Source: an uncultured Candidatus Saccharibacteria bacterium (lineage in GTDB: Bacteria > Patescibacteriota > Minisyncoccia > UBA6257 > 02-FULL-45-10c). Taken from it: a stretch of 47,337 bases of DNA. The stretch covers positions 1-47,337 of the forward strand of contig CAYHBW010000004.1 in the NCBI GenBank assembly GCA_964355085.1. Direction: 5' to 3'. The notes under the pieces are model-generated. The model saw nothing but the letters and a program-made list of their open reading frames with translations. It did not search any database and was not told the DNA's origin. Of the stretch, positions 883 through 45,005 are shown one piece after another (within the stretch, counting starts at the first letter, position 1; every line of letters begins with the position of its first letter). A program made the translations under genes and the position numbers.

Positions 883-2662
883 ATTTATTTGAGAGGCGCG
901 AAAGCTCGTTCTCGGTTATTACTTTATTTATTGCGACTGGAATTTTTCCGGCGCGCTTATTGAATGCTTTCTGGATTTTTTGGCGGCGGGCGGTTTCGTC
1001 GATGACTTTTCGGATTGAATCGGTTATTCTGTCGGCATAAAAAATAACTTTTCCGTCGATGGATCTGGCGGCTCGTCCGGCCATCTGCATCAAGCCGCGG
1101 AAATTCCGGAGAAATCCTTCCCGGTCGGCATCCAGGATCGCCACCAGGCTGACTTCCGGCAGATCCAGTCCTTCGCGGAGAAGATTTATTCCGACTACGA
1201 CATCGACGATTCCTTTGCGGAGATCGTTCAGGATTTCCGGACGCTTCAGGGTTTTTATTTCCGAATGAAGATAGTGCGCCTTGATTCCTTTCGCCAGCAG
1301 GAATTCCGTAAGGTCTTCGGATGATCTTTTTGTCAATGTAAGCGCAAGTACTCGTTCATCGCGCGCTATCCGGATTTTGATTTCTTTCAGTAGATCTTCA
1401 ACCTGCGTATTCACCGGACGTATTTCGATATTCGGATCAAGAATTCCGGTCGGACGGACAAGCTGTTCGGCTACATTCAGTCCGGACTTTTCAAACTCAT
1501 AAGGTCCCGGAGTCGCGGAGACGTAAATAGTCTGCGCGGTGCGGGATTCGAATTCATTGAATTTCAGCGGCCGGTTATCCAAAGCGGACGGCAGGCGGAA
1601 TCCGTAATTGATGAGGTTTGATTTGCGCTGGCGGTCGCCTTCATACATCGCACCTATCTGCGGAATCGCGATATGCGATTCATCGATGAAAAGCAGGCTC
1701 GGCTTCGGAAAATAATCAAGTAACGTCGCAGGCGGTTCGCCCGGCTCGCGGAAAGCGAGATGCCGGGAATAGTTTTCAATGCCGTTCACGTACCCGTTTT
1801 TCTTAAGCATTTCCAGATCGAAAAGAGTCCGTTTTTCAATGCGGTCGGCTTCTTCGAATTTGTTCGCGGACTGGAAATCTTCCACGCGCTCTTCCATTTC
1901 AGTTTTTATGTTCTGAAGGGCGAGTTTGAGTTTCTGCTGCGGCGTGACCCAGAATTTCGCCGGGTAAACGCTTATTTCCTGCCGGGGAATCCCTCCGATC
2001 ATCAGGATTTGGGCTATCTTTCTGTCTGCGAATTCCAGAATCGCCTGTTCTCCGGTAACCAGATTTATGATCAGTCTGTTATTGGTTATTTTATATTGTC
2101 CCTGATCCGGATCTTTGGTGGTTCGTTCATATTGGAGGAAATTAAGATGGCGGGCGACATCAGCCGGATTGATTATCTGGCCGGCCTTCAGATCAAGTCG
2201 GGTCCTCATATATTCTGAAGGATCTCCGATTCCGTAAATGCAGGAAACAGATGCGATGACTATGGTATCTTTTCGGCTAAGGACGCTCTGGATGGCTGCG
2301 TGCCGGAGTTTGTCGATCTCTTTGTTGATGCGCGCGTCTTTCTGGATATAAAGATTCGTGTTTGGCAGATAAGCTTCCGGCTGGTAGTAATCATAATAAG
2401 AAACAAAATAGTGCACGGCGTTTTCCGGAAAGAAAGTCTTGAACTCCTGGTAAAGCTGGGCAGCGAGGATTTTGTTCGGAGAAATTATGAGAGCCGGAAG
2501 ATTCGATTGGGCTATTATCGAAGCCATGGTGAAGGTTTTTCCCGACCCGGTCACGCCCAGAAGAACCTGGTCTTTCTGGCCGGATTGGAGGCCGGATACG
2601 AGTTTTTCAATGGCTAATGGCTGATCGCCTTTAGGACTGAAGTTGGAGATGAGTTTAAACAT
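881..2662 (-). CDS. uvrB: excinuclease ABC subunit B (short form, no C-terminal UVR domain)
   Basis: 593 aa. Walker A GVTGSGKTFT, FIDESH box, GRAARS motif VI. The protein ends about 13 aa after the conserved KIP...INK region, so the usual C-terminal coiled-coil is absent. Confidence 0.93.
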   Translation of the reverse strand: MFKLISNFSPKGDQPLAIEKLVSGLQSGQKDQVLLGVTGSGKTFTMASIIAQSNLPALIISPNKILAAQLYQEFKTFFPENAVHYFVSYYDYYQPEAYLPNTNLYIQKDARINKEIDKLRHAAIQSVLSRKDTIVIASVSCIYGIGDPSEYMRTRLDLKAGQIINPADVARHLNFLQYERTTKDPDQGQYKITNNRLIINLVTGEQAILEFADRKIAQILMIGGIPRQEISVYPAKFWVTPQQKLKLALQNIKTEMEERVEDFQSANKFEEADRIEKRTLFDLEMLKKNGYVNGIENYSRHLAFREPGEPPATLLDYFPKPSLLFIDESHIAIPQIGAMYEGDRQRKSNLINYGFRLPSALDNRPLKFNEFESRTAQTIYVSATPGPYEFEKSGLNVAEQLVRPTGILDPNIEIRPVNTQVEDLLKEIKIRIARDERVLALTLTKRSSEDLTEFLLAKGIKAHYLHSEIKTLKRPEILNDLRKGIVDVVVGINLLREGLDLPEVSLVAILDADREGFLRNFRGLMQMAGRAARSIDGKVIFYADRITDSIRKVIDETARRQKIQKAFNKRAGKIPVAINKVITENELSRLSNK

Positions 2663-2768
2663 GGGTATACTTAAGTTATAAGTTCAAAGTTTTAAAGATT
2701 AAATCAGAATTAAGCAAAAAAAGAAATCTGACTAATCACTAGCTGCTGATCACTAACAACTAAAATTC

Positions 2769-3347
2769 ATGATCCACTCCCTTAAAGGAACCTTGCAGGA
2801 GAAAGAAGGAAATTTGTTTGTGGTTGAAATAGGCGGGATTTCATTTGCCGTGAAGTCATCGGTTAATGTTGTGAATAAATTACCACAAGTCGGACAACCA
2901 GTCAATGTTTTCACTTATCTTCATGTCCGCGAGGATGCGCTCGAGCTTTACGGATTTCTTAATAAGGAAGAGCTCGGATTTTTTCAGATGCTGATCGGCA
3001 TCTCCGGAATTGGACCGAAGTCGGCTCTGGGAATACTCGGGATAGAGAACGTGGAAAAACTGAAAGCCGCAATCAGCGAAGGGCGGGTTGAGCTTCTTAC
3101 TAAAGCTTCCGGCGTCGGCAAAAAAACCGCGGAACGCATAATTCTCGAGCTGCGAAGCAAGCTGATGCAGTCCGGATCGGAGAAGATTGTCGGAGCGATG
3201 GAGTCGGATCATGACATCATCGAGGCGCTTTCTAATCTTGGTTATTCCAAATTCCAGGCCCGTGAAGCATTGGCGAAAATGGATCCGTCCGTAGTCAGGA
3301 TGGAGGAAAGAATCAAAGGGGCGTTAAAATTACTTAAAAATGCGTAA
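2769..3347 (+). CDS. ruvA: Holliday junction DNA helicase subunit RuvA
   Basis: 192 aa. N-terminal OB-like region, two helix-hairpin-helix motifs (GIGPKSA, GVGKKTAERI) and a C-terminal domain III. Confidence 0.9.
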   Translation: MIHSLKGTLQEKEGNLFVVEIGGISFAVKSSVNVVNKLPQVGQPVNVFTYLHVREDALELYGFLNKEELGFFQMLIGISGIGPKSALGILGIENVEKLKAAISEGRVELLTKASGVGKKTAERIILELRSKLMQSGSEKIVGAMESDHDIIEALSNLGYSKFQAREALAKMDPSVVRMEERIKGALKLLKNA

Positions 3348-4575
3348 AGTCTTGAATTCAATGGAACAGATCAAGTCGATCTATCACTTCGGGCTCGCCT
3401 GGTTCGGGAACCTCTGGTTTAAAAAGCCATCCAAGAAAATATTCATCATCGGCGTCACCGGCACCAAAGGAAAATCGACGGTAACCGAGCTTATCAATGC
3501 GATTTTGGAGACCGCCGGGAAGAGGGCTGCTGTCAGCTCTTCCGTGCGGTTCAAGATGGATGGTGAAAGCCGTCCGAATTTCACCGGTATGAGCATGCCG
3601 GGAAGATTTTTCCTTCAGAAATTCCTTGCGGAGGCCGTATCCAAGGGGTGCGATTATGCGGTCATAGAAGTCACTTCGCAGGGAGTTCTTCAGCACCGCC
3701 ATCGCTTCGTGGATTTTGACGCGGCTCTTGTCACGAATCTTGAGCCGGAGCATATCGAAGCGCACGGTTCTTTTGAGAATTACCGGGATTCAAAAGTGAA
3801 GTTTTTCCGGGATGTTTCCCTTTATTCAGCCAAATCCCAGAAATTCTTTTTCATAAATTCTGAAACGCGGGATTACGAATTTTTTTCGGCCGCCGCAGCA
3901 GATTTCGGCCGCATTGTTCTTTTCAATAAAAAAGACATGATCAAGGTGAAGATAAAGACGAAGCTTATCGGAGAATTCAACATGGAAAATATCGCCGCTG
4001 CCGTCGCTTTCGCGCGCTCAAGGAATATAGATTGGGATACCATCCGGCAGGCGGTCGAAGCTTTCGACGGAGTGCCAGGAAGATTGGAATTCGTCCAGAA
4101 GACTCCTTTTTCAGTCGTCATTGATTATGCTCATACGCCGGACTCATTGGAAAAAGTCTATCAGACTCTGAAAGGAAAAGGCGGGAAAGGTGACGGGAAA
4201 AAATTGATCTGCGTTCTGGGCGCCGCCGGCGGAGGAAGAGATATGTGGAAGCGCCCGGTTATGGGAGGCATAGCTGAAAAATATTGCGATTCAATAATTC
4301 TTACGAATGAAGATCCTTTTGATGAAGATCCGCAGGAAATAATCGATGAAATAGAATCCGGAATGATCAATTCTGGTAAAAAGAAAGTCAGGAAGATAAT
4401 CGACCGTCGGGAAGCCATCCGGGCGGCGATTCGTTCCGCAAAAAAAGGAGATTCGGTGATAATCACCGGCAAGGGATCGGAGGCCTATATGAGGGTTGCG
4501 GATGGCAGGCAGATTTCCTGGAACGAAAAAGAGATAACGACGAAGATCCTGAACGGAGAAAGGATTGAGGCATAA
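3340..4575 (+). CDS. Mur ligase family protein (MurE-like, lacks the usual N-terminal domain)
   Basis: P-loop GVTGTKGKST, DYAHTPDSL, GAAGGGRD..KRP, TNEDP..EDP. Overlaps the ruvA end by 8 nt; an alternative ATG lies at 3361. Confidence 0.8.
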   Translation: MRKVLNSMEQIKSIYHFGLAWFGNLWFKKPSKKIFIIGVTGTKGKSTVTELINAILETAGKRAAVSSSVRFKMDGESRPNFTGMSMPGRFFLQKFLAEAVSKGCDYAVIEVTSQGVLQHRHRFVDFDAALVTNLEPEHIEAHGSFENYRDSKVKFFRDVSLYSAKSQKFFFINSETRDYEFFSAAAADFGRIVLFNKKDMIKVKIKTKLIGEFNMENIAAAVAFARSRNIDWDTIRQAVEAFDGVPGRLEFVQKTPFSVVIDYAHTPDSLEKVYQTLKGKGGKGDGKKLICVLGAAGGGRDMWKRPVMGGIAEKYCDSIILTNEDPFDEDPQEIIDEIESGMINSGKKKVRKIIDRREAIRAAIRSAKKGDSVIITGKGSEAYMRVADGRQISWNEKEITTKILNGERIEA

Positions 4576-4578
4576 AAA

Positions 4579-4599
4579 ATCCCGCAACGGGATTTTTTT
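4579..4599 (+). terminator. rho-independent terminator after the Mur ligase gene
   Basis: ATCCCG-CAA-CGGGAT hairpin followed by TTTTTT. Confidence 0.7.
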
Positions 4600-4614
4600 G
4601 CTATAATTCAGATA

Positions 4615-5967
4615 ATGCGGCTTACATTTTACGGTGGCGCCGGCGAGGTGACGGGCGCTAATTACATACTGGAAAGCGGAGATACGAAGATCATGATCGA
4701 TTGCGGTCTTCATCAGGGCGCGCACTTTTGCGAGAAGCATAACTGGGAGCCGTTTCCGTATGATCCGAAAACCGTGAATGCGGTTTTTCTGACGCACGCC
4801 CATATCGATCATTCCGGGCGGTTGCCGAAGCTAATGAAGGACGGTTTTCATGGAACGGTCTATTCAACTCCGCCGACAAGGGATTTCGCCAATGTCCTGC
4901 TTCTGGATTCCGAACACATGCTCATTGAAGCGGCGGAGCGCTTCAAGCTGCCTAATCTGTATGGCGTCCGGGAAATTGAGGAGCTGATGGCGCACTGGAA
5001 GGGCTTGAAATATCATGAGTCGGTTCAGATCGGTCCGTTCAAAGTGACGCTTTATAATTCCGGACACATTCTCGGTTCAACCAGCTATCTTATTGAATGC
5101 GAAGGGAAGAAGATCGTATTTTCCGGCGATCTCGGAAACAGTCCGGCTCCGATAATCGGTCCATACGAGAAATTCAAAGAAGAAGATGTCATCGATTATT
5201 GCGTGATTGAGTCCGCCTATGGCAGTCGTTTTCATGAACCGATTCCGGAAGGAGCGATCGAAGATGCCATCGAGGGGGCGGTCAGGGCCGGCGGCGTTCT
5301 GATGATTCCGGCTTTCGCCATGGAGCGTACCCAGAAACTTCTTTTTGAAATAAACGAGCTGATTGAGAACGGAAGAGTCCCGAGAATTCCGATATATCTG
5401 GACAGTCCGCTGGCTATCAAGGTGACGGAGGTGTATAAAAAATATCCTGAATATTTTGACGCGGGAACAAGGAATCTTCTCAAAAACGACAACACCCTTT
5501 TCGAATTTCCCGGTCTTCATAAGACTTTGACATCTGATGAATCAAGGATGATTAATGATGTTCCGGCTCCGAAAGTCATAATCGCCGGTTCCGGAATGTC
5601 GCAGGGCGGACGCATACTTCACCATGAGAAAAGATATCTTCCTGATCCGAAAAGCACGATTCTTTTCATCGGTTATCAGTCGAGCGGAACGCTGGGGCGC
5701 AGGATTCTGGATGGAGAAAAAAATGTCAGAATTCATCATGAAACCGTTCCCGTACGTTGCCGCAAAGTTCAGATCGAAGGTTATTCCGCCCACGCGGATC
5801 AGGGACAGTTGATGGCCTGGCTTGAGCCGATGAGATTTTCTCTTAAGAAAGTTTTTACCGTTCAAGGCGAGGAAGAGGGAAGTGAAATTTTGGCGAAGCG
5901 GATCATAAACGATCTTGCGGTCAAGGCGGAAGCCCCGGCTGTCGGTTCTGTGTATGATTTGACATAG
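4615..5967 (+). CDS. MBL-fold metallo-hydrolase, beta-CASP RNA-processing nuclease family
   Basis: 450 aa. HAHIDHSG motif, beta-CASP region, C-terminal GYSAHAD. TATAAT at 4602-4607 lies only 7 nt before the ATG. Confidence 0.85.
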   Translation: MRLTFYGGAGEVTGANYILESGDTKIMIDCGLHQGAHFCEKHNWEPFPYDPKTVNAVFLTHAHIDHSGRLPKLMKDGFHGTVYSTPPTRDFANVLLLDSEHMLIEAAERFKLPNLYGVREIEELMAHWKGLKYHESVQIGPFKVTLYNSGHILGSTSYLIECEGKKIVFSGDLGNSPAPIIGPYEKFKEEDVIDYCVIESAYGSRFHEPIPEGAIEDAIEGAVRAGGVLMIPAFAMERTQKLLFEINELIENGRVPRIPIYLDSPLAIKVTEVYKKYPEYFDAGTRNLLKNDNTLFEFPGLHKTLTSDESRMINDVPAPKVIIAGSGMSQGGRILHHEKRYLPDPKSTILFIGYQSSGTLGRRILDGEKNVRIHHETVPVRCRKVQIEGYSAHADQGQLMAWLEPMRFSLKKVFTVQGEEEGSEILAKRIINDLAVKAEAPAVGSVYDLT

Positions 5968-6661: not shown

Positions 6662-6742
6662 TCCGCCAGCTGGCGGATTGGTCCCTTAGCCCGCCGAAGG
6701 CGGGTAAACACAACGCCCCGACTTCGGTCGGGGCGTTTTCTT
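6662..6742 (+). terminator. array of three GC-rich hairpins, the last a rho-independent terminator
   Basis: TCCGCCAGCTGGCGGA (6662-6677), CCCGCC-GAA-GGCGGG (6690-6704), ACGCCCCGAC-TTCG-GTCGGGGCGT (6713-6736) followed by a T-tract. Confidence 0.65.
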
Positions 6743-10023: not shown

Positions 10024-10095
10024 GTCCCCATAGCTTAATGGATAAAGCGTAGCCCTCCGAAGGCTGAGATTGTGGTTCGATTCCACATGGGGACA
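10024..10095 (+). tRNA. tRNA-Arg (anticodon CCG)
   Basis: Cloverleaf folded by hand: acceptor GTCCCCA/TGGGGAC, anticodon stem TAGCC/GGCTG, loop CTCCGAA, T-arm GTGGT-TCGATTC-CACAT region. CCA is not encoded. Confidence 0.9.
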
Positions 10096-10112
10096 CAAAT
10101 TATTTAACATAG

Positions 10113-10141
10113 GTGTCGGGGTTCGATTCCTGTCGAGGACA
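10113..10141 (+). pseudogene. tRNA 3'-end fragment (T-loop plus acceptor 3' strand only)
   Basis: CGGGGTTCGATTCCTGTCGAGGACA resembles the 3' end of the Arg tRNAs in this window, but the T-stem is degenerate and there is no 5' half. Confidence 0.55.
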
Positions 10142-10182
10142 CAAAGCCCTCTCTCCGAGCCGTTGGCTCTACGAGCCGGAGG

Positions 10183-10223
10183 CCGAAGGATGAGATCGAG
10201 GTTCGATCCCTAGCTAGGATCCA
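10183..10223 (+). pseudogene. tRNA-Arg(CCG)-like 3' half fragment (anticodon loop to 3' end)
   Basis: CCGAAGGATGAGATCGAGGTTCGATCCC aligns with CCGAAGGCTGAGATTGTGGTTCGATTCC of the intact tRNA at 10024-10095. No matching 5' acceptor strand is present. Confidence 0.55.
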
Positions 10224-10299
10224 GATTTGACTTTGGCTTGATTTTCTGTTAATATATTCATCAGTAGTTGATGTTCCTTGAAAAGGAGGCGCGGCAATG
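10221..10299 (+). promoter_or_regulatory. promoter plus conserved 5' leader module, copy 1
   Basis: CCAGATTTGACT, TTGACT 10227-10232, 17-nt spacer, TAATAT 10250-10255. Then ATCAGTAGTTGATGTTCCTTGAAAAGGAG before ATG 10297. Confidence 0.65.
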
Positions 10300-10560
10300 A
10301 AAAGAGTCTTAGGTTTGGTTTTGGTCACATTAATTTTTGCTGGATGCAAACAAGACCCAGTTTCCAAATCACGAACTAATAATCCAAAGATTGATGCGGA
10401 AATTTTGTTTGATTATGATGGTTGTCGAGTTTACCGATTTGTTGACGGTGGTTATGAGCGTTATTTTGCCCGCTGCAGTTCTTCAACAAGCACTTCATGG
10501 AATGAACAGCACGGAAAACATTCATCGCCAAGAGAGATAACAACTGTAGAAGAAAAGTAA
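10297..10560 (+). CDS. small lipoprotein (hypothetical)
   Basis: 87 aa. Signal peptide with lipobox LIFAGC, strong SD, terminator downstream. Confidence 0.7.
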   Translation: MKRVLGLVLVTLIFAGCKQDPVSKSRTNNPKIDAEILFDYDGCRVYRFVDGGYERYFARCSSSTSTSWNEQHGKHSSPREITTVEEK

Positions 10561-10568
10561 TAATTACC

Positions 10569-10604
10569 GACCGTTGGTTTTCTATATACCAACGGTCTTT
10601 TTTT
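10569..10604 (+). terminator. rho-independent terminator
   Basis: GACCGTTGG (10569-10577) / CCAACGGTC (10589-10597) followed by TTTTTTT. Confidence 0.75.
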
Positions 10605-10725
10605 ATAAACTATAGTGAGTTACGGGATGGAGTAAGTTTATGCATTGGCGTATTCTCTTAAATCTGGCATATAAACATATTCATTTTCCCGTTGGATGAT
10701 GGTTCTAACGTCATTTACAATGGCA

Positions 10726-10802
10726 CCCAGATTTGACTCTAAGTAAATTTTATCGTAATGTATCAATCAGTAGTTAATGCTCATTGAAAAGGAGATGAAA
10801 TG
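10726..10802 (+). promoter_or_regulatory. promoter plus conserved 5' leader module, copy 2
   Basis: CCCAGATTTGACT, TTGACT 10732-10737, 17-nt spacer, TAATGT 10755-10760. Then ATCAGTAGTTAATGCTCATTGAAAAGGAG before ATG 10800. Confidence 0.65.
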
Positions 10803-13150: not shown

Positions 13151-13177
13151 GCCCCCGATTTTGGTCGGGGGATTTTT
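13151..13177 (+). terminator. rho-independent terminator (CCCCCGA / TCGGGGG hairpin)
   Basis: Stem 13152-13158 / 13165-13171, followed by TTTTT. Confidence 0.7.
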
Positions 13178-23841: not shown

Positions 23842-24215
23842 TGGAGATGGTGGGAGTTGAACCCACATCCGAAAATGTATCTGCCTCAAATCTACGCGCG
23901 TAGCTTGGTCTTGGTTTGTGAAAATGAGCTATAGATCAAGCAAAACGCATCATTTCCATTGTCAGTGAATTTCTCCGCAGTTAGTAGACTTCTGCTACGG
24001 AAGAGTCTGATTAATTACACCGAAGTTCGGCCTACCAGACATGAGCCGTTCGATGGTCCCGCGGCATATAGCGGCGGAACAAGCCAGTTATGCGAAAGCA
24101 AAATCTGGCATTCTGTTGGATAAGTTTGCACTTATTCAGTTTCCCAGTTTAACAAGTTATGGAAGCTTGGCGCGCATTGAAACAGAAAAAATTCCCGTCA
24201 AAGCCCGGCATCCCC
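23842..24215 (-). ncRNA. ssrA: tmRNA (SsrA)
   Basis: 5' GGGGATGCCGGGCTTTGACGGGA..., 3' GGGTTCAACTCCCACCATCTCCA tRNA-like end. Candidate tag ORF from GCA at 24129 to TAA at 24090-24088. Adjacent to smpB. Confidence 0.88.
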
Positions 24216-24262
24216 TTGGTTTAGAATCTAGAATTCAGTATCTAGTATCTAAAATATGAAAT

Positions 24263-25729: not shown

Positions 25730-27529
25730 ATGATCGCGGACATAAAAAAACTCATAAAACAGACCGCTTCGGCGGAAATAGACATTGAAGTCAGCGCTTC
25801 GGACAAGCCGGAGTTCGGTCATTATTCCACTAATGCGGCTTTTAAATTGGCGCCGATAGTCAGGAAATCTCCTCTTGAAATCGCTAAGGACTTAAGTCAA
25901 AAATTGGGCGAAGAAAAGATTTTTTCAAAAGTCGAAGCAGTTGCGCCCGGATTCATCAATTTTTGGATTTCATCGGCGGCTTTGCAAGGGAGTGTTGCAG
26001 AAATTTTAAAAGAAAATAAAAATTTCGGAAAGTTGAGCGGAGCGAAATCCGCCTCTGGCGGATTAAAAGTTAACCTAGAGTTCGTTTCCGCTAATCCGAC
26101 CGGGCCATTGACCATGGCTAACGGCCGAGGGGGATTTTACGGAACTGCGCTTGCGAATGTTCTGGAAAAAACCGGTCATAAAGTTACACGGGAATATTAC
26201 GTGAATGACGCCGGGAATCAGGTCCGGAAGTTGGCATTAAGTATATTGGCAGAAAAAGGATTCGTGCCTAAGTTTTCCGAGCATTATCAGGGTGGTTATA
26301 TTAAAGAATGGGCAATGTTAGTTAAATTATCAAAAGAATTAGAAAAAAAATTAAAGTTAAATTATAAATTAGGTAAGTCAGAATTTGAAAAAGGAGAAAA
26401 ATATCAAGATGAAAATGCAGAAATTGCACGTTTCTATAATTCGATAGTTAAGCCAATTTATAGAAATCATCTCAAGGATCTCGAATCTATCGGTAAAAAA
26501 ACTACACTGATTGCATTAAAAAGTATAAAAAAATCTCTTCAAAAAGCGGGGATCAGGCATGACAATTGGTTTTCCGAGGATGCGAATCTTCATAAAAAAG
26601 GAGAGCTAAAGAAAGCTTTAGAATTTTTAAAAAATCGAAAAGTAGTTGAAGAAAAAGACGGAGCAACGTGGCTAAAACACCATGAGGCGAAGCCTCAGGA
26701 GTTCGCCCGACCGAATTTACACGGCAAATTCAGTTTAGGGTTGGGCGAAGGGGTTCTTATAAAGTCTGACGGCTTGCCTACTTATTTTCTGGCCGATCTT
26801 GCTTATCACTACAACAAGCTGATAAAGCGGAAATTCGATCTCGCCATCGATATCTGGGGCGCGGATCATCATGGCTATGCGCAAAGGATGAAAAAAGGCG
26901 TGGAAGCGCTCGGATTGAATTCGGAAAGATTGAAAATTCTTATCACGCAGCTGGTCCGGTTGGTCAGCGGCGGGAAAGAAGTCCGCATGTCCAAGCGGAA
27001 AGGGGAATTCATCACCATGGACGATCTTTTGGAAGAAGTCGGGGCGGATGCGGCCAAGTTTTTCTTTTTGATGCATTCATTGGATACGCATATGGATTTT
27101 GATATGGATCTGGCGAAAGAGAAATCCAATAAGAATCCAGTATTCTATGCGCAATATGCGCTCGTAAGATGCAGTAACATCTTACGGAAGTCTAAAGCCC
27201 CGACCAAAGTCGGGGAGCCGACTCTGGTCGGCTTTAAAAATTTAAAATTAGAGTTTTTGACTTCCGAGTCGGAGGTCAGATTGATGCTAGAATTGATGAA
27301 ATTCCCTGATCTGATTACGCAGACAGCGGAAGATTATCAGGTCCATCATCTGACAAAATATGCCGGCGATGTCGCCCGGGCTTTGCACAATTTTTATGAA
27401 AAAGAGAGGGTTGTCGGGCTGGAAGATAAAAAACTTGAGCGGGCCCGATTGGCGCTGGTTTCCGCGACAAAGATTGTTTTGGAAAATCTGTTCGATATTT
27501 TAGGAATCTCAAAACCAAAGAAAATGTAA
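25730..27529 (+). CDS. argS: arginine--tRNA ligase
   Basis: 599 aa. SANPTGPLTMANGRG (HIGH region), HHGY, MSKRKG, C-terminal DALR anticodon-binding region ending in M. Confidence 0.95.
   Translation: MIADIKKLIKQTASAEIDIEVSASDKPEFGHYSTNAAFKLAPIVRKSPLEIAKDLSQKLGEEKIFSKVEAVAPGFINFWISSAALQGSVAEILKENKNFGKLSGAKSASGGLKVNLEFVSANPTGPLTMANGRGGFYGTALANVLEKTGHKVTREYYVNDAGNQVRKLALSILAEKGFVPKFSEHYQGGYIKEWAMLVKLSKELEKKLKLNYKLGKSEFEKGEKYQDENAEIARFYNSIVKPIYRNHLKDLESIGKKTTLIALKSIKKSLQKAGIRHDNWFSEDANLHKKGELKKALEFLKNRKVVEEKDGATWLKHHEAKPQEFARPNLHGKFSLGLGEGVLIKSDGLPTYFLADLAYHYNKLIKRKFDLAIDIWGADHHGYAQRMKKGVEALGLNSERLKILITQLVRLVSGGKEVRMSKRKGEFITMDDLLEEVGADAAKFFFLMHSLDTHMDFDMDLAKEKSNKNPVFYAQYALVRCSNILRKSKAPTKVGEPTLVGFKNLKLEFLTSESEVRLMLELMKFPDLITQTAEDYQVHHLTKYAGDVARALHNFYEKERVVGLEDKKLERARLALVSATKIVLENLFDILGISKPKKM
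27194..27234. repeat. 41-nt double-hairpin palindromic element inside argS (copy 1)
   Basis: CCCCGAC-CAAA-GTCGGGG (27198-27215) and AGCCGAC-TCTG-GTCGGCT (27216-27233). 36/41 identical to 31744-31784. Confidence 0.8.
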
Positions 27530-29099: not shown

Positions 29100-32000
29100 A
29101 TGCTTAGAGGCCTTAAGGAATTCAAATTGCCGGAAATAGAGGAGAGAGTGCTCAAATTCTGGAAAGAAAACAGGATTTTTGAGAAGTCTTTGAAGCTTCG
29201 CGAGAATGCGAAGCCCTTCCGATTTTTTGAAGGTCCGCCGACTGCTAACGGCCGTCCCGGAATTCACCATGTTCTTGGTCGGGCATTTAAAGATGTCATT
29301 CCGCGCTATAAGACAATGCAGGGATATTTGGTCAATCGAAAAGCCGGCTGGGATACTCATGGTTTGCCGGTGGAAATTGAAGTTGAAAAAGAACTCGGCC
29401 TGAAAAATAAACAGGAAATCGAGAAATTCGGAATCGCGGAATTCAATGAAAAAGCCAAATCTTCCGTCTGGAGATATCAGGAAGAATGGGAAAAGCTGAC
29501 TGACCGTATCGGATTCTGGTTGGATATGAAAAATCCGTATGTCACCTATAAGCCGGATTACGTGGAAAGTCTTTGGTGGGTTTTGAAGCAGATTGCAGAC
29601 AGGGATCTTCTCGCTCAGTCATTTAAGATTGTTCCTTATTGCCCTCGCTGTCAGACTCCGCTTTCCAGTCATGAAATGGGACAGCCGGGAGTTTATAAAA
29701 AAGTTAAAGATCCATCCGTATACGTAAAGTTCACCCTTCGACAAGCTAAGGGTAAAAAAAATAAAGCAAAAGAATACCTCTTGGTCTGGACCACCACTCC
29801 GTGGACTTTGCCGTCCAATGTGGCTGTCGCAGTCAATCCGGAATTAAGCTATACGAAATATAAAGTCGGAAAAGATTTTGTCTGGTCATATAATCCTCCG
29901 CCTTCGCCAGAGGCTACGGCGGACAAGTCCTCCGAAAATATTGAGGTGGTGGAAAAGATTTCCGGGAAGAAAATGATCGGTTGGGAATATGAGCCGATGT
30001 TCAAGGTAAAAGGCCCGTGGCTGAAAAACAAGAAGTTTTTTAAAGTTTACGGCGCCGGTTTTGTATCCACTACGGACGGAACAGGATTGGTTCATATTGC
30101 TCCGGCTTTTGGCGAGGATGATATGCAGCTTATTAAAAAAGAGCAGAAAGAATTGGTCGGACAGATCCCAATCACTATTGATGCGCGTGGCATAGTTCAG
30201 GCAGGACTGCCGGGCGCAGGGAGATTTGCCAAGCAGGCGGATAAAGATATCATCGCTCATCTTTTGGATAAAAAAATACTGCTTAAATATGAAGAAATAG
30301 AGCACGATTATCCGTTTTGTTGGAGATGCGGAACGCCTATTTTATACTTCTCCCGCTTTTCCTGGTTCATAGAAATGAGCGGGCTTCGCGACCAGCTTCT
30401 GAAAAATAATGAAAAGATAAATTGGGTTCCGGATCACATTAAAGAGGGGAGATTCGGTGAGTGGCTTCGTGAAATAAAAGATTGGGCGATTTCTCGTGAT
30501 CGCTATTGGGGAACGCCGCTACCGATTTGGCGATGTGGGGATTGTGAGGCGACTAAGGTCGTCGGAAGCTTAAAAGAATTGGACGATAGCCGTTTTTCGG
30601 AAAATAATTTTTATTTTCTCCGTCATGGAGAGTCAGATCATAATTTGACTGATATTATAGCAGCCGGGCCGGAGCGCGGAAAAAATATTTCCAAGCTGAC
30701 CAAGAAAGGCCTTGCGCAAGCGGAAGAAGCCGGAAAAAATATAAAGAAAATGCTCGGGAAAAATAAACTCGATTTCATTTTCGCTTCGCCTTATCAGCGT
30801 ACAAAGCAGACGGCAAAGGCGGTCGCTAAGCAGACGAAAGCGAAATTGATTTTTGATAAAAGGTTGGTTGAAATCGATGCGGGAATTTTTAATTGGAGAG
30901 TGGTCGGAGAGTTCCATAAATTTTTTGAGAATTCTTTGGAGCGCTTCACTAAATCTCCGGCTGGTGGAGAAAATCTGAATGATGTTAAAAAAAGGATGTT
31001 CGGCGCAATTCTGGATATCAATTCCAAATATTCCGGTAAAAATATTCTCATTGTCAGCCATGGCGATCCACTTTGGGTTTTGGAAGGAGCAATGAAGGGA
31101 TTGGATAACGAAGAAATTTTGAATTTGGATTACATTAAAACTGACGGCAAGCCGCGGAAAGTTGAGTTGCATAATTGGCCGTATAATATGAATTGTGAGC
31201 TCGATATTCATCGCCCGTATGTCGATGATCTGCATCTTAAGTGCGGGAAGTGTGATGGCAAAATGACCCGCGTGAAGGAGGTCGCCGATTCTTGGTTTGA
31301 TTCCGGAGCAATGCCGTTTGCGCAATTTCATTATCCATTCGCGCAAGATCTGAAAAATCCTTTGGATATGAATTCGATTGAAAAAACGATTGAATTTCCG
31401 GCTGATTACATCAGCGAGGGAATTGATCAGACCAGGGGATGGTTTTATACTCTTCTAGCCGTGGCCACTGCTTTGGGCTTGGAAAATCCTTACAAAAACG
31501 TGATTACGCTTGGATTAGTTTTAGATAAAAACGGCCAAAAGATGTCCAAGTCAAAGGGAAACGTGGTCAGTCCGTGGGATATGATTCAGAAATACGGCTC
31601 TGATGTTGTCCGCTGGTATTACTACACCATCAATCCGCCGTCTGAATCCAAAAAATTTGACGAGCTGGATCTCGGCAAGATGCTCCGAAAGTTCATAATG
31701 ATAATTTATAACTCTTTCGTTTTTCTGGAGACTTATGGGGATAAAAGCCCCGACCATAGTCGGGGAGTCGACTTGGGTCGACTTCAGAATGTTTTAGATA
31801 GATGGATCTCAGCTAGATTGAATCAGACAATCGAGCAGGCGACGGAAGGATTGGAAAAATACGATGTCGGTTCCGCCGGAAAGGCGCTGGAATCTTTTGC
31901 AGACGATCTTTCCCGATGGTATATCCGCCGTTCCCGTCCGCGCCTGCAGAAGCCGGATGATATGAAGGATTATGCGTCCGCCTCCGCCACTTTGCGGTTC

Positions 32001-32642
32001 TGCCTTTCTGAATTGAGCCGGATGATGGCCCCGTTCACGCCTTTTTTTGCCGATGCTCTTTATCTTTCAGTTTCCGCCGTCAAGGAATCCGTCCATCTTG
32101 AGGATTGGCCGGAAGCGGACAAGAAAGCGGTTGATTTTTCTTTACTCGAAAAAATGGAAGAAGTCCGAAGATTATCCAGCTTGGCTCTGGCGATCCGCGC
32201 TGAAAAAGGAATGAAGGTCAGGCAACCGCTTCAGGCGTTGGAAATAAAATCCAAGGCAATTGATGTTCGCGATGAAGAGCTTTTGGCGATTCTTCGCGAT
32301 GAAGTGAATGTAAAGGAAGTCCGATGGAATTATGAAATGAAAGAAGAATTGGCTTTTGATCTTGTAATAACGCCTGAACTCAAAGAAGAGGGTATTCTCC
32401 GGGAAGTTGTTCGCATGGTTCAAGGACTTCGCCATGATGCAGGTTATGTTCCTTCAGATGCCATCGAGCTTAGGATTGAGGGCCCTAAAGAGCTGGAAAA
32501 CGCCTTAAATGCGCATATGGCGCGTCTTAAGCGGGATGTGGGGGCGAAGTCGGTTGAGCTCAAAAAGAGCGATAAATATGACGCTGAATTGAGCACTAAA
32601 TTTGAAGACCAGCCGCTTTGGGTCGGGGTAAGAAAAATCTGA
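29100..32642 (+). CDS. ileS: isoleucine--tRNA ligase carrying an inserted histidine phosphatase domain
   Basis: 1180 aa. PTANGRPGIHH (HIGH), WTTTPWTLP editing domain, WAISRDRYWGTPLPIW, KMSKSKGN, C-terminal anticodon-binding region. Confidence 0.95.
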   Translation: MLRGLKEFKLPEIEERVLKFWKENRIFEKSLKLRENAKPFRFFEGPPTANGRPGIHHVLGRAFKDVIPRYKTMQGYLVNRKAGWDTHGLPVEIEVEKELGLKNKQEIEKFGIAEFNEKAKSSVWRYQEEWEKLTDRIGFWLDMKNPYVTYKPDYVESLWWVLKQIADRDLLAQSFKIVPYCPRCQTPLSSHEMGQPGVYKKVKDPSVYVKFTLRQAKGKKNKAKEYLLVWTTTPWTLPSNVAVAVNPELSYTKYKVGKDFVWSYNPPPSPEATADKSSENIEVVEKISGKKMIGWEYEPMFKVKGPWLKNKKFFKVYGAGFVSTTDGTGLVHIAPAFGEDDMQLIKKEQKELVGQIPITIDARGIVQAGLPGAGRFAKQADKDIIAHLLDKKILLKYEEIEHDYPFCWRCGTPILYFSRFSWFIEMSGLRDQLLKNNEKINWVPDHIKEGRFGEWLREIKDWAISRDRYWGTPLPIWRCGDCEATKVVGSLKELDDSRFSENNFYFLRHGESDHNLTDIIAAGPERGKNISKLTKKGLAQAEEAGKNIKKMLGKNKLDFIFASPYQRTKQTAKAVAKQTKAKLIFDKRLVEIDAGIFNWRVVGEFHKFFENSLERFTKSPAGGENLNDVKKRMFGAILDINSKYSGKNILIVSHGDPLWVLEGAMKGLDNEEILNLDYIKTDGKPRKVELHNWPYNMNCELDIHRPYVDDLHLKCGKCDGKMTRVKEVADSWFDSGAMPFAQFHYPFAQDLKNPLDMNSIEKTIEFPADYISEGIDQTRGWFYTLLAVATALGLENPYKNVITLGLVLDKNGQKMSKSKGNVVSPWDMIQKYGSDVVRWYYYTINPPSESKKFDELDLGKMLRKFIMIIYNSFVFLETYGDKSPDHSRGVDLGRLQNVLDRWISARLNQTIEQATEGLEKYDVGSAGKALESFADDLSRWYIRRSRPRLQKPDDMKDYASASATLRFCLSELSRMMAPFTPFFADALYLSVSAVKESVHLEDWPEADKKAVDFSLLEKMEEVRRLSSLALAIRAEKGMKVRQPLQALEIKSKAIDVRDEELLAILRDEVNVKEVRWNYEMKEELAFDLVITPELKEEGILREVVRMVQGLRHDAGYVPSDAIELRIEGPKELENALNAHMARLKRDVGAKSVELKKSDKYDAELSTKFEDQPLWVGVRKI
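30585..31200 (+). other. histidine phosphatase (PGAM-like) domain inserted in the IleRS catalytic core
   Basis: FYFLRHGESDHN (RHG), SPYQRTKQTA, EIDAGIF, IVSHGDPLW. It sits between ...VVGSLKELD and DIHRPYVDD, which are only about 13 aa apart in the Thermus IleRS sequence as I recall it. Confidence 0.75.
31744..31784. repeat. 41-nt double-hairpin palindromic element inside ileS (copy 2)
   Basis: CCCCGAC-CATA-GTCGGGG (31748-31765) and AGTCGAC-TTGG-GTCGACT (31766-31783). Confidence 0.8.
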
Positions 32643-39179: not shown

Positions 39180-40511
39180 TTAATATTGCGGCGGCAAAAA
39201 TTTCTTTCGGCGGACAGAGCGGTGATAGCGCAAGACGAAATTGTGCGTATTTTGGATCGCCATGCGGATGATTTTCTGAAAATCTTCCGGAAGCTCTGTA
39301 ATCGGAACCGGCAAGGGTTTCAGGCCGTAGACTTCCTGATTTGGTTTGGCAAATGAAATTATTTTAGGTAATTGGTAATTAGTAATTGGTAACTTAGAAA
39401 GAGCGCGCTTCGCGGCATTAAACTGCGTTATTCCTCCGTCAATAATAAGCAGATCCGGATATGGCCATTCCGGATGGTTAAGCCGGCGGGAAACCATTTC
39501 TTCCATCATGCGCGGATCGTCTTCAATTATTTGTGTGGGCGCATCCGTATTTCTCGGAGCTTCAGCGAAGTGAGCGCTATTCGTATGCTTGAATTTCCGC
39601 CACATGTTTTTATCCGCAGTCCACTCGTTTGATACGTGATACCTGATACCGGATTCCGCGCGTTGCCAGCGCGTCATCGCCCCGACCGCTTCTTTTCCGG
39701 AAAGATGGGAGTTGTCGTAACATTCAATGCTTCGGATAGAATCTAGTATCTGGTAGCTAGAATCTGAAAGAACATTCTTATTCCTACTAGATTCCAGATT
39801 CTTAATTCCAGATTCTAAATAAGGTTTATGCGCCCAGATTTTTTCCAATACCAGAAGTTCATATGGATCTTTCAATGATCGCAGGAATTTCTTGTTTTCT
39901 CCCGTCAGAATATCCTTTATCCTTTTTATATTTTTCTGATATTTCCGGATTTCTTTTATTTGCGGTGTTAGTGTTGAATCCGCGTCATTCGCATTATATT
40001 TACGGCAGCAATACCAGGGACAATTATTTATCTGGGCATCAAGACAGATGCGCAAATGAGGTTTATGGGCGCAGTAGGGAATCGTACGTCTGATGAGCCG
40101 GAGGATTGATTTAAGCGGTGCGCCGTCAGTGAAGGGGCCGATGTATTCCTGGTTTTTATCATGTAATTGATGGGTGATAAAAATTCGCGGAAAAGCTTCC
40201 TTTGAAATGGCCACATAGAAATAATTCTTGTCGTCTTTGAAAAGAACGTTGTATTTCGGCTTCAGTTCTTTTATCAATTTTGATTCCACGATCAGCGCTT
40301 CGATATTTGAGCGCAAAGCAACGGTTTTCAGCGAGGTGGCTTCTTCATGCAAGGACTTAGTTTTGATGTCAGTTATTTTCAGATAGTTCTTCAGGCGGTT
40401 CCGCAGATTGGACGCTTTGCCGACATAAAGAACTTCTTTTTTATGGAAAAAAATATATACGCCGGGTTCTTTAGGGGAATATTTGATTTTCTGGATAATG
40501 TCGGATAGCAT
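39180..40511 (-). CDS. uvrC: excinuclease ABC subunit C, short form (no recognisable UVR or C-terminal HhH domains)
   Basis: 443 aa. GIY-YIG (GVYIFF...VLYVGKASNLRNRLKNY), the IECYDNSH endonuclease domain, DLLIIDGGITQ, and an ending in a ..RYHRSVRRK-type motif. Confidence 0.85.
   Translation of the reverse strand: MLSDIIQKIKYSPKEPGVYIFFHKKEVLYVGKASNLRNRLKNYLKITDIKTKSLHEEATSLKTVALRSNIEALIVESKLIKELKPKYNVLFKDDKNYFYVAISKEAFPRIFITHQLHDKNQEYIGPFTDGAPLKSILRLIRRTIPYCAHKPHLRICLDAQINNCPWYCCRKYNANDADSTLTPQIKEIRKYQKNIKRIKDILTGENKKFLRSLKDPYELLVLEKIWAHKPYLESGIKNLESSRNKNVLSDSSYQILDSIRSIECYDNSHLSGKEAVGAMTRWQRAESGIRYHVSNEWTADKNMWRKFKHTNSAHFAEAPRNTDAPTQIIEDDPRMMEEMVSRRLNHPEWPYPDLLIIDGGITQFNAAKRALSKLPITNYQLPKIISFAKPNQEVYGLKPLPVPITELPEDFQKIIRMAIQNTHNFVLRYHRSVRRKKFLPPQY
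39739..39816. repeat. palindrome and tandem 11-mer inside uvrC
   Basis: GAATCTAGTA (39739-39748) / TACTAGATTC (39785-39794). TTCCAGATTCT occurs twice (39792-39802 and 39806-39816). Confidence 0.65.
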
Positions 40512-44508: not shown

Positions 44509-44678
44509 ATTTCATACTCCGGCACAAGTCGGAGATTTTGTTTTTTAAATGCAGATTTTGTATAATTGATATTACATTATAAATAACGGTCGAAAATAAA
44601 ATAAATAGTATTTAGAATTTAGTAGTTAGTATCTGAAATCGGAAACTAACACCTAAAAACTAAAACCTAAATAAATTT

Positions 44679-44954
44679 ATGACAAAAGAAGGACTCATAC
44701 AGGCGGTGATGAAGGCGACAAAGATGGAAACTAAGAAAGCCGCTCAAGCGGCGACTGAAGCTGTTTTTGAAGTTATCACCAAGACTCTTGCTCGTGGCGA
44801 AGAAGTTGCGGTCACCGGTTTCGGAACTTTCCGCGCCGTCAAAGTCGCCGCCCGCCAAGGTGTCAATCCGAAGACGGGGGAGAAGATCCAGATCGCAGCG
44901 GCCATCCGTCCCAAGTTCAAGGCAGGAAAGGCGCTTAAGGATGCAGTGGCGTAG
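44679..44954 (+). CDS. hup: HU family DNA-binding protein
   Basis: 91 aa. GFGTFRAVKVAARQGVNPKTGEKIQI arm motif. Confidence 0.93.
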   Translation: MTKEGLIQAVMKATKMETKKAAQAATEAVFEVITKTLARGEEVAVTGFGTFRAVKVAARQGVNPKTGEKIQIAAAIRPKFKAGKALKDAVA

Positions 44955-45005
44955 GATTAGTAGCTAGTAGTTAGAAGTTAGTATTTAGTAACTAGTAACA
45001 AAAAA

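Follow-up and report, generated by a model that had tools for sequence, protein, structure and literature searches.

The 47,337-nt contig CAYHBW010000004.1 of an uncultured Candidatus Saccharibacteria bacterium (the window below, that is, the whole stretch of DNA that was analysed) carries two nearly identical GC-rich sequences in two different aminoacyl-tRNA synthetase genes, argS and ileS. A sequence-only reading of this DNA had described a 41-nt double hairpin and had suggested either a selfish palindromic element that tolerates translation, similar to Rickettsia palindromic elements (RPEs), or a functional mRNA structure, such as a ribosome pause or RNase site. We denote as E this small GC-rich double-hairpin DNA element, which is 36 nt long in the window copies and 36-40 nt in its family. 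Our favoured reading, with a probability of about 0.7, is that the argS and ileS sequences are solo copies of a mobile double-hairpin family spread over the candidate phyla radiation (CPR, or Patescibacteria), behaving as selfish, mobile or gene-converting DNA, the spread of which would be driven by a nuclease.

Two copies of E in the window

The host genes and the two copies, all on the plus strand, are as follows.

25730-27529, plus strand: argS, arginine-tRNA ligase, 599 aa, host of copy 1
27198-27233 (36 nt), plus strand: E copy 1 in argS, hairpins at 27198-27215 and 27216-27233
27198-27215, plus strand: copy 1, hairpin 1, CCCCGAC-CAAA-GTCGGGG
27216-27233, plus strand: copy 1, hairpin 2, AGCCGAC-TCTG-GTCGGCT
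29100-32642, plus strand: ileS, isoleucine-tRNA ligase, 1180 aa, with an inserted His_Phos_1 domain, host of copy 2
31748-31783 (36 nt), plus strand: E copy 2 in ileS, hairpins at 31748-31765 and 31766-31783
31748-31765, plus strand: copy 2, hairpin 1, CCCCGAC-CATA-GTCGGGG
31766-31783, plus strand: copy 2, hairpin 2, AGTCGAC-TTGG-GTCGACT

The stretches 27194-27234 in argS and 31744-31784 in ileS are identical at 36 of 41 positions. Three of the five differences fall in the loops, and the other two form a compensatory stem pair, C27218-G27231 in argS versus T31768-A31781 in ileS; position counting thus reproduced this part of the sequence-only reading. The translations agree with it as well: the argS copy is read as (A)PTKVGEPTLVG (ArgRS aa 487-498) and the ileS copy, in a frame 1 nt off, as (S)PDHSRGVDLGR(L) (IleRS aa ~884-895). 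The element itself is real, but its proposed length has to be reduced, as comparison of tRNA fragments with intact tRNAs (see below) gives the exact unit as hairpin 1 plus hairpin 2 without a spacer (36-40 nt); the AAAG and T flanking the 36-nt unit in the window are host sequence.

Both copies hold the two adjacent 7-bp hairpins ascribed to them. The ileS copy indeed folds into these hairpins (-22.9 kcal/mol), whereas the minimum-energy fold of the argS copy is one long hairpin (-26.7 kcal/mol), which is possible because the 5' arm of hairpin 1 complements the 3' arm of hairpin 2, the copy being a nested palindrome. The fold z-scores of the two copies range from -2.9 to -4.2. A degenerate pattern of E has two matches in the window, compared to 0.00 expected from 100 dinucleotide shuffles, and hairpins with the CGAC..GTCG core and a stem of at least 6 bp occur five times, with 0.07 expected. 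These two are the only full copies in the 47-kb window, which also contains two single-hairpin terminator-like units. At gathering thresholds, Rfam yields only tRNAs and tmRNA in the window and no family matching E, and an identity with a known RNA family was rejected.

Position of E in the host proteins

The ArgRS relatives at 57-70% identity have 505-540 aa, compared to 599 aa in the window. The argS site is a variable linker that follows NILRKSK where the DALR anticodon-binding domain begins, and when the residues of E are removed, this linker becomes as short as in the relatives P0008 and P0009. The suggested 12-14 aa are no net insertion in IleRS, where the ETYG.K-NVLDRW segment comprises 15 aa in the window and 12-13 aa in relatives, the closest of which have 89%, 85% and 82% identity. 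The ileS site is a loop between the catalytic core, ending near aa 857, and the Anticodon_1 domain, starting from aa 900; in the Thermus thermophilus IleRS this position is likewise occupied by a loop of about the same length. In ileS, E thus took the place of a pre-existing inter-helix loop of ~10 codons and lengthened the protein by a net 2-3 residues (three codons relative to the closest relatives), and the event was therefore no simple insertion.

At the DNA level the flanks of the ileS site are conserved, and the filler is unrelated from genome to genome. In the relative with 89% IleRS identity (locus L200) it consists of four copies of the 7-mer AGTCCAA, in that with 85% identity (L201) it is rich in GAATTC/AGATCT, and neither contains E; the argS site of L201 holds a different GC palindrome, CCTGGCCGGGCAGG. 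The alignment of orthologues proposed in the sequence-only reading thus yields unrelated sequence at the same spot, the peptides encoded by E not being carried. A clean empty site was sought in ileS and argS, but the closest relatives (L200 and L201) show different fillers of similar length instead, and therefore the exact insertion junctions in these two genes are not definable. Both sites map to inter-domain loops and represent the equivalent junction, at which the class I catalytic core meets the anticodon-binding domain. This junction is a hot-spot, other short repeats being carried there by close relatives.

Several further observations concern these two proteins. The peptide repeat 'NPKPSTLNPK' is common to an ArgRS (P0005) and two IleRS sequences (P0124, P0132), and several families of in-frame fillers seem to be hosted by CPR genomes. 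The ArgRS of the window has two more lineage-specific inserts, ~45 aa after 'KLSKE' and ~21 aa 'KHHEAKPQEFARPNLHGKFS', both absent from the relatives at 57-70% identity, and other CPR ArgRS have their own P/G/S/R-rich micro-insertions at different sites. In IleRS, the class I catalytic domain is interrupted at aa 504-676 (30609-31127) by a His_Phos_1 domain (PF00300, phosphoglycerate mutase (PGAM)-like), in which the histidine-phosphatase motifs RHG...H and SHG are present; the same insert is found in all 120 best homologues, all of them from CPR bacteria, and therefore represents a clade-wide fusion and no local oddity.

The family of E in Patescibacteria

The pattern CCCCGAC-N3-6-GTCGGGG-NNN-CGAC-N3-6-GTCG, searched for in one genome per species (185,579 species), is present in at least 119 loci. 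All but eight of the matches listed are labelled as metagenome-assembled genomes (MAGs) of Patescibacteria/CPR; the groups represented among them are Nomura-, Taylor-, Kaiser-, Wolfe-, Adler-, Yanofsky-, Doudna-, Komeili- and Moraniibacteria, as well as Saccharibacteria, and these matches span many classes, studies and assemblers. Four of the eight non-CPR matches listed are irregular and come from genomes with 67-76% GC, and we take them as chance matches; the other four are canonical elements in genomes with a CPR-like GC content (40-48%), and are probably mis-binned. Without the chance matches, E is thus present in at least 115 loci. The search for further copies suggested by the sequence-only reading thus produced many, both genic and intergenic and in six frames, although mostly in other genomes of the phylum, the window having only its two full copies. 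Viral contigs of IMG/VR contain no match to the E pattern (0 matches), and on this ground a phage origin was rejected.

The number of copies varies widely from genome to genome. One Taylorbacteria MAG has 17 near-identical copies, embedded in a slightly larger conserved context and including one copy with paired changes in both loops, pointing to a probable recent amplification.

In its general form E comprises two abutting hairpins, each with an invariant CCGAC...GTCGG core, two or three outer pairs that co-vary, and an unconstrained loop. The three positions of hairpin 2 left free in the pattern pair with the three bases following the stem in nearly every copy listed, the main types of these outer pairs being TCC/GGA, CTC/GAG, AGC/GCT and CCC/GGG. 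In 50 distinct copies collected independently of the pattern, the outer stem pairs are of the Watson-Crick type in 44-49, with at most four pair types per position. Mismatched pairs were too few for the asymmetry between G-U and A-C pairs to separate selection at the RNA level from that at the DNA level. The loops reach 5-30 nt in the loci selected by the nuclease protein (see below), and some of them hold complete nested CCGAC..GTCGG hairpins (L122, L138, L186, L193); the close relatives L120 and L082 differ by whole hairpin units.

Among the same 50 copies, E follows TAG in 31 and precedes CTCAG or CTCAA in 25, which places it between tRNA positions 10 and 11. More generally, E is usually situated directly 3' of G or AG, in either orientation, the AG is not repeated after it, and comparison of tRNA fragments with intact tRNAs reveals no target-site duplication at the junctions. 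E is a discrete, structured, phylum-restricted repeat, not kept at orthologous positions in near relatives.

Such a distribution bears on two alternatives. If the similarity between the copies were an artefact or a coincidence, it would be due to an assembly chimera or to the independent in-situ origin of GC-rich hairpins. The window is metagenome-derived, and both sites are hypervariable, with low-complexity fillers in relatives, as such an explanation would have it. It is effectively refuted by the absence of expected chance matches (0.00), by the recurrence of the same core in MAGs from many studies and assemblers, by the in-frame constraint described in the next section, and by the conserved architecture beside a specific protein family.

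The second alternative is that E is a DNA-level signal beneficial for the host and maintained by selection, such as a protein binding site or a DNA-uptake, recombination or replication signal. The CCGAC/GTCGG stem has been kept in very divergent CPR classes, the loops having drifted, and the same hairpin is terminator-like at 6712 and 13153 of the window; the uptake sequences of Neisseria likewise serve as terminator-like structures. However, CCCCGAC occurs in the window four times, compared to 1.2 expected, far below the density of uptake signals, and full copies number only two in 47 kb; moreover, E is absent from the same sites in close relatives, its copy number in genomes varies widely, its link with a nuclease gene is a typical trait of selfish DNA, and neither a uniform density per genome nor syntenic conservation of copies has been seen so far. 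We consider a host signal improbable, and the particular case of a DNA-uptake signal was rejected, as the stem 7-mer is not broadly over-represented in the window.

Copies inside protein genes

Approximately half of the copies among the matches listed lie in long open reading frames (ORFs); the others occur in intergenic DNA, in 5' leaders and in fragments of tRNA genes. Among the matches listed, the length of E is a multiple of three in 23 of the 29 clearly coding copies, compared to 18 of the 46 clearly non-coding ones (Fisher p=0.0008), which argues for E in protein genes being translated rather than excised from mRNA. In four cases deletion of E resulted in a longer ORF; these proved to be copies in 5' leaders directly upstream of start codons, and excision at the RNA level was rejected. 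The coding copies are oriented along the gene in 13 cases and against it in 16, and use all six frames. Their hosts include SecA, EF-G, UvrC, a class II aminoacyl-tRNA synthetase, MnmA, MurB, release factor RF1/2, ribosomal protein L3 and KsgA, as well as a ComM-like ATPase, a beta-CASP (RNase-J-like) RNase and several glycosyltransferases; in total, in-frame copies are seen in ~20 identified housekeeping proteins.

These data allow one to address the other proposal of the sequence-only reading, according to which E would be a functional structure in the argS and ileS mRNAs (a ribosome pause, an RNase entry site or a regulatory hairpin). Both window copies indeed reside in aminoacyl-tRNA synthetase genes, on the sense strand and at the equivalent domain junction, their hairpins are stable (-23 to -27 kcal/mol, z from -2.9 to -4.2), and the compensatory pair keeps hairpin 2. 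Yet the latter is equally expected for a DNA palindrome; 16 of the 29 coding copies are antisense, and others are found in unrelated genes, intergenic DNA, 5' leaders and tRNA-gene fragments; IleRS orthologues at 85-89% identity lack E, and no Rfam family matches it. An mRNA function, therefore, is highly improbable. The proposal of a selfish RPE-like palindromic element tolerating translation, on the contrary, has gained support from the many copies, the unrelated fillers in relatives and the location in inter-domain loops.

Association with a GIY-YIG nuclease and tRNA genes

In six loci of the first scan E forms part of a cassette with the following order: tRNA positions 1-10/15, E, the rest of the D-loop, a short spacer, an ORF of ~87 aa, and an intact tRNA. 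The intact tRNA shares its 5' end with the fragment, the tRNAs involved being those for Arg, Lys, Asn, Pro and Phe. Thus E is common to the solo copies and the 5' end of the cassette; the latter corresponds to no recognised insertion sequence. Flanks of the type TAGCTCAG and TTGGTAGA on the two sides of E suggested interrupted tRNA genes, with E as a tRNA intron; however, when E was deleted with boundary shifts of +/-3 nt, ARAGORN found no tRNA spanning the junction, and these flanks are partial duplicates of the 5' end of the adjacent intact tRNA.

The ~87-aa ORF encodes a bare GIY-YIG catalytic domain (PF01541, E=2e-14) with the catalytic residues Y..Y.G.T, R, H and E conserved, nearest to the uncharacterised UPF0213 structures 1zg2 and 1ywl. 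A hidden Markov model search of the first locus set (matches listed) located all eight close GIY-YIG homologues at 10-91 nt from E, unlike more distant GIY-YIG genes.

An independent set was formed by 80 metagenome loci picked by the nuclease protein only. In ~80% of them a tRNA starts between -10 and +30 nt from the stop codon of the nuclease gene, the ORF often overlapping the tRNA by 9-10 nt, and 11 tRNA amino-acid identities are represented. A tolerant detector finds the double hairpin upstream of the nuclease start codon in 53 of 77 protein-selected loci. A count-based proxy (at least two CCGAC and at least two GTCGG motifs within 130 nt) gives 51 of 77 windows upstream of the nuclease, compared to 26 of 1742 control windows. 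The strict regular expression for E matched only ~13% of loci at this place, long or nested loops producing false negatives, and the tolerant detectors were used for this reason. An exact copy of 8-16 nt of the tRNA 5' end precedes the double hairpin in 29 of 57 loci, and approximate copies are seen in many more. The hairpins occur on the 5' side of the nuclease gene only and the tRNA on its 3' side.

The nuclease subfamily comprises more than 3,700 clusters of 86-88 aa, and those with a named source belong almost exclusively to Patescibacteria lineages, a range that matches that of E. For 33 of 60 nucleases the nearest neighbour resides at a tRNA for the same amino acid (permutation mean 7.4, maximum 16), although this link is not exclusive.

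The tRNA fragments downstream in the protein-selected loci often hold further copies of E. In two loci (L081, 1411-1524; L181, 2812-3065) truncated tRNA copies are arranged in tandem beside an intact tRNA, each with E in the D-loop, an arrangement that suggests repeated rounds of duplication.

Comparison with known systems

RPEs are palindromic, lack a transposase of their own and are inserted in frame in permissive parts of the proteins encoded by unrelated housekeeping genes, as well as in RNA genes (PMC10969869). E resembles them as an in-frame palindrome at permissive sites of many genes in bacteria with reduced genomes. The differences are in size (~100-150 bp in RPEs, 36-40 nt in E), in range, RPEs being restricted to Rickettsia and E distributed across the superphylum Patescibacteria with no sequence similarity between the two, and in reading, as each RPE family uses one frame with a conserved peptide and E is read in all six; in addition, E is linked to a GIY-YIG nuclease gene. 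Hence E works like RPEs but fails membership on size, taxon and the one-frame conserved peptide.

Mitochondrial GC clusters are GC-rich palindromes of 26-79 bp in AT-richer genomes, GC42 being 42 nt long (PMC4478555), and the double-hairpin elements (DHEs) of Allomyces are defined by their folding into two stem-loops (Paquin et al. 2000 as cited in PMC3787672). Both share with E a pair of GC-rich stem-loops in which the stems are conserved and the loops variable, an AG where the unit is inserted, the merging and nesting of units and occasional genic copies, and no dedicated transposase is known for them (PMC4478555; PMC3787672). Unlike E, they are organellar and eukaryotic (fungal mitochondrial), have no sequence similarity to it, and in the case of yeast GC clusters are flanked by AG/ACT direct repeats, no duplication accompanying E. 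On the other hand, only E is abundant in essential protein genes under the multiple-of-three constraint, and has a partner gene and a tRNA-gene context. By anatomy, E is closest to these mitochondrial GC clusters and Allomyces DHEs.

Repetitive extragenic palindromes (REPs), their composite bacterial interspersed mosaic elements (BIMEs) and elements derived from IS200/IS605 are imperfect palindromes of 20-40 nt, often paired, that flank one small nuclease gene. REP-type insertion occurs 3' of a short motif without target duplication; REPs are extragenic by definition, and have a conserved 5' GTAG and an HUH/Y1 transposase, the REP-associated tyrosine transposase (RAYT). The pairing of hairpins with one small nuclease gene and insertion without target duplication are features common with E. 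Unlike REPs, approximately half of the copies of E are intragenic, its partner is a GIY-YIG domain (PF01541) and not an HUH transposase, and the hairpins are on the 5' side of the gene only, with the tRNA on the 3' side. From a miniature inverted-repeat transposable element (MITE) E differs in consisting entirely of two hairpins, with no terminal inverted repeats flanked by a target-site duplication.

Finally, the SegB gene of phages T4/T6, encoding a GIY-YIG nuclease, lies among tRNA genes (PMC2330249), and SegB activity is required for segmental duplications of the tRNA locus, involving microhomology of the tRNA 5' end to the 3' end of segB (PMC13096335). Similarly, the CPR nuclease gene adjoins tRNA genes, the sequence at its 3' end overlaps the tRNA 5' end or has microhomology to it, and partial tRNA copies are present. 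SegB, however, comes from phages and has, in its ~220 aa, a DNA-binding region, the CPR nuclease being a chromosomal catalytic domain of ~87 aa; no hairpin module has been described for SegB, and no viral contig of IMG/VR carries E. Compared to free-standing GIY-YIG homing genes in general, the CPR nuclease retains the catalytic motifs and lacks a separate DNA-binding domain; like them, it occupies a specific conserved site (the tRNA 5' end in ~80% of loci), and its lineages track this site.

Proposed mechanism

E probably spreads as selfish DNA, and the likely motor is the GIY-YIG nuclease or the break repair that it provokes. The nuclease of ~87 aa, or the repair triggered by it, would spread E, which would land without target-site duplication, mostly 3' of G or AG and in either orientation. 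The surviving genic copies would be those with a length that is a multiple of three bases and no stop codon in the used frame, situated in permissive surface or inter-domain loops, and they would be transcribed and translated as a loop of 12-13 residues rich in P/T/V/G/S/R/D. The copies in argS and ileS, like other solo copies, would be either MITE-like non-autonomous derivatives of the cassette or repair footprints. Given the SegB precedent, the partial tRNA duplications are plausible by-products of the nuclease activity.

A more specific scheme may be offered tentatively, in which E is the cis-acting hairpin module of an unrecognised class of CPR mobile elements. The nuclease would cut or recognise E or the DNA of the tRNA D-arm and integrate at tRNA position ~10-15. 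Integration of the cassette would restore an intact tRNA and borrow the tRNA promoter, and the MITE-like solo hairpins shed by the element would seed loops of 12-13 residues in essential proteins phylum-wide.

An alternative close to the favoured reading, from which it differs in practice only in mechanism, is that E is a repair scar or a footprint of abortive integration: the GIY-YIG cassette or another nuclease breaks DNA, and in the course of repair the hairpin module is copied from a cassette through microhomology or template switching, neighbouring codons sometimes being deleted. In ileS, E indeed substituted ~10 codons instead of adding 12, target-site duplications are absent, and the linkers of relatives contain other short fillers, as expected for spots prone to breaks and repair; breaks of the SegB type are a known cause of local duplications, and partial tRNA duplications surround the cassette copies. 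Conversely, one MAG has 17 near-identical copies, as if a discrete unit had been amplified; hairpin units are gained, lost and nested as wholes, which has a modular look, and the window has no cassette as a template. On balance, we regard the repair scar as unlikely.

Returning to E as mobile DNA spread by the nuclease, several points weigh against it. The nuclease (86-88 aa) comprises a catalytic domain alone, and no DNA-binding module can be recognised in it. Its lineages track tRNA identity, a pattern more in keeping with site-specific homing, or with vertical descent of the cassette, than with promiscuous action in trans. No GIY-YIG cassette is encoded within the 47-kb window, and in ileS, E replaces a linker of ~10 codons and is not a clean insertion. 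No transposition or homing event was seen, and no pair of near-identical genomes differing only by one solo E was found. The perfect complementarity of the stems could reflect the way hairpins are generated and not structural selection, and a host function could be the reason why the stem sequence has been kept in very deep CPR lineages. In the full-text literature searched, including a 2024 review of prokaryotic MITEs, no description of E or the cassette in CPR was found, which is no proof of novelty.

Other repeats and neighbouring features

Two single hairpins of the window belong to the same stem family.

6712-6737, plus strand: single hairpin AACGCCCCGAC-TTCG-GTCGGGGCGTT followed by a T-run; the stem is that of hairpin 1; at a gene end
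13153-13170, plus strand: single hairpin CCCCGAT-TTTG-GTCGGGG followed by a T-run; directly past a stop codon

The hairpin-1-stem pattern of the former has four matches in the window, with 0.08 expected. The 6712-6737 hairpin looks like an intrinsic terminator, and both hairpins may be solo units of the E family co-opted as terminators.

In the region 10024-10800, tRNA-Arg(CCG) is followed by two fragments resembling tRNA 3' ends (10118-10143 and 10198-10223), and a direct repeat of 68 nt is present at 10221 and 10727; this arrangement resembles the attachment-site debris of integrative elements. An intergenic repeat of TAG(A/T)ATCTAG-like 7-mers is dispersed over the window (24215-24254, 39730-39769, 44599-44638, 44951-45004), one copy adjoining the 5' edge of the tmRNA gene, and similar 7-mer arrays occur in other CPR loci, e.g. 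downstream of a tRNA in L084. In the syntenic relative L201, a Prim-Pol/AAA_25 gene and a large serine recombinase adjoin smpB (1511-5177); this looks like a small integrated element, with none at the corresponding place of the window.

Significance

Proteins and RNAs of CPR/Patescibacteria are known for unexplained lineage-specific insertions, and E represents a concrete, traceable source of one class of them, affecting SecA, EF-G, a release factor, L3, aminoacyl-tRNA synthetases and others. Rickettsia and organelles have provided most of the documented cases of in-frame palindromic elements; the phenomenon is now extended to a bacterial superphylum, with far smaller units. The domain-only GIY-YIG nuclease encoded beside tRNA genes is a candidate enzyme paired with E, and this opens the movement of hairpin elements to experiment. 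In practical terms, E can confound marker-gene calling, alignment trimming and phylogenomics of CPR, and could serve as a phylum-specific sequence marker. If the tentative scheme of a cassette with a cis-acting hairpin module is true, this cassette would be a major ongoing source of lineage-specific protein insertions in CPR bacteria.

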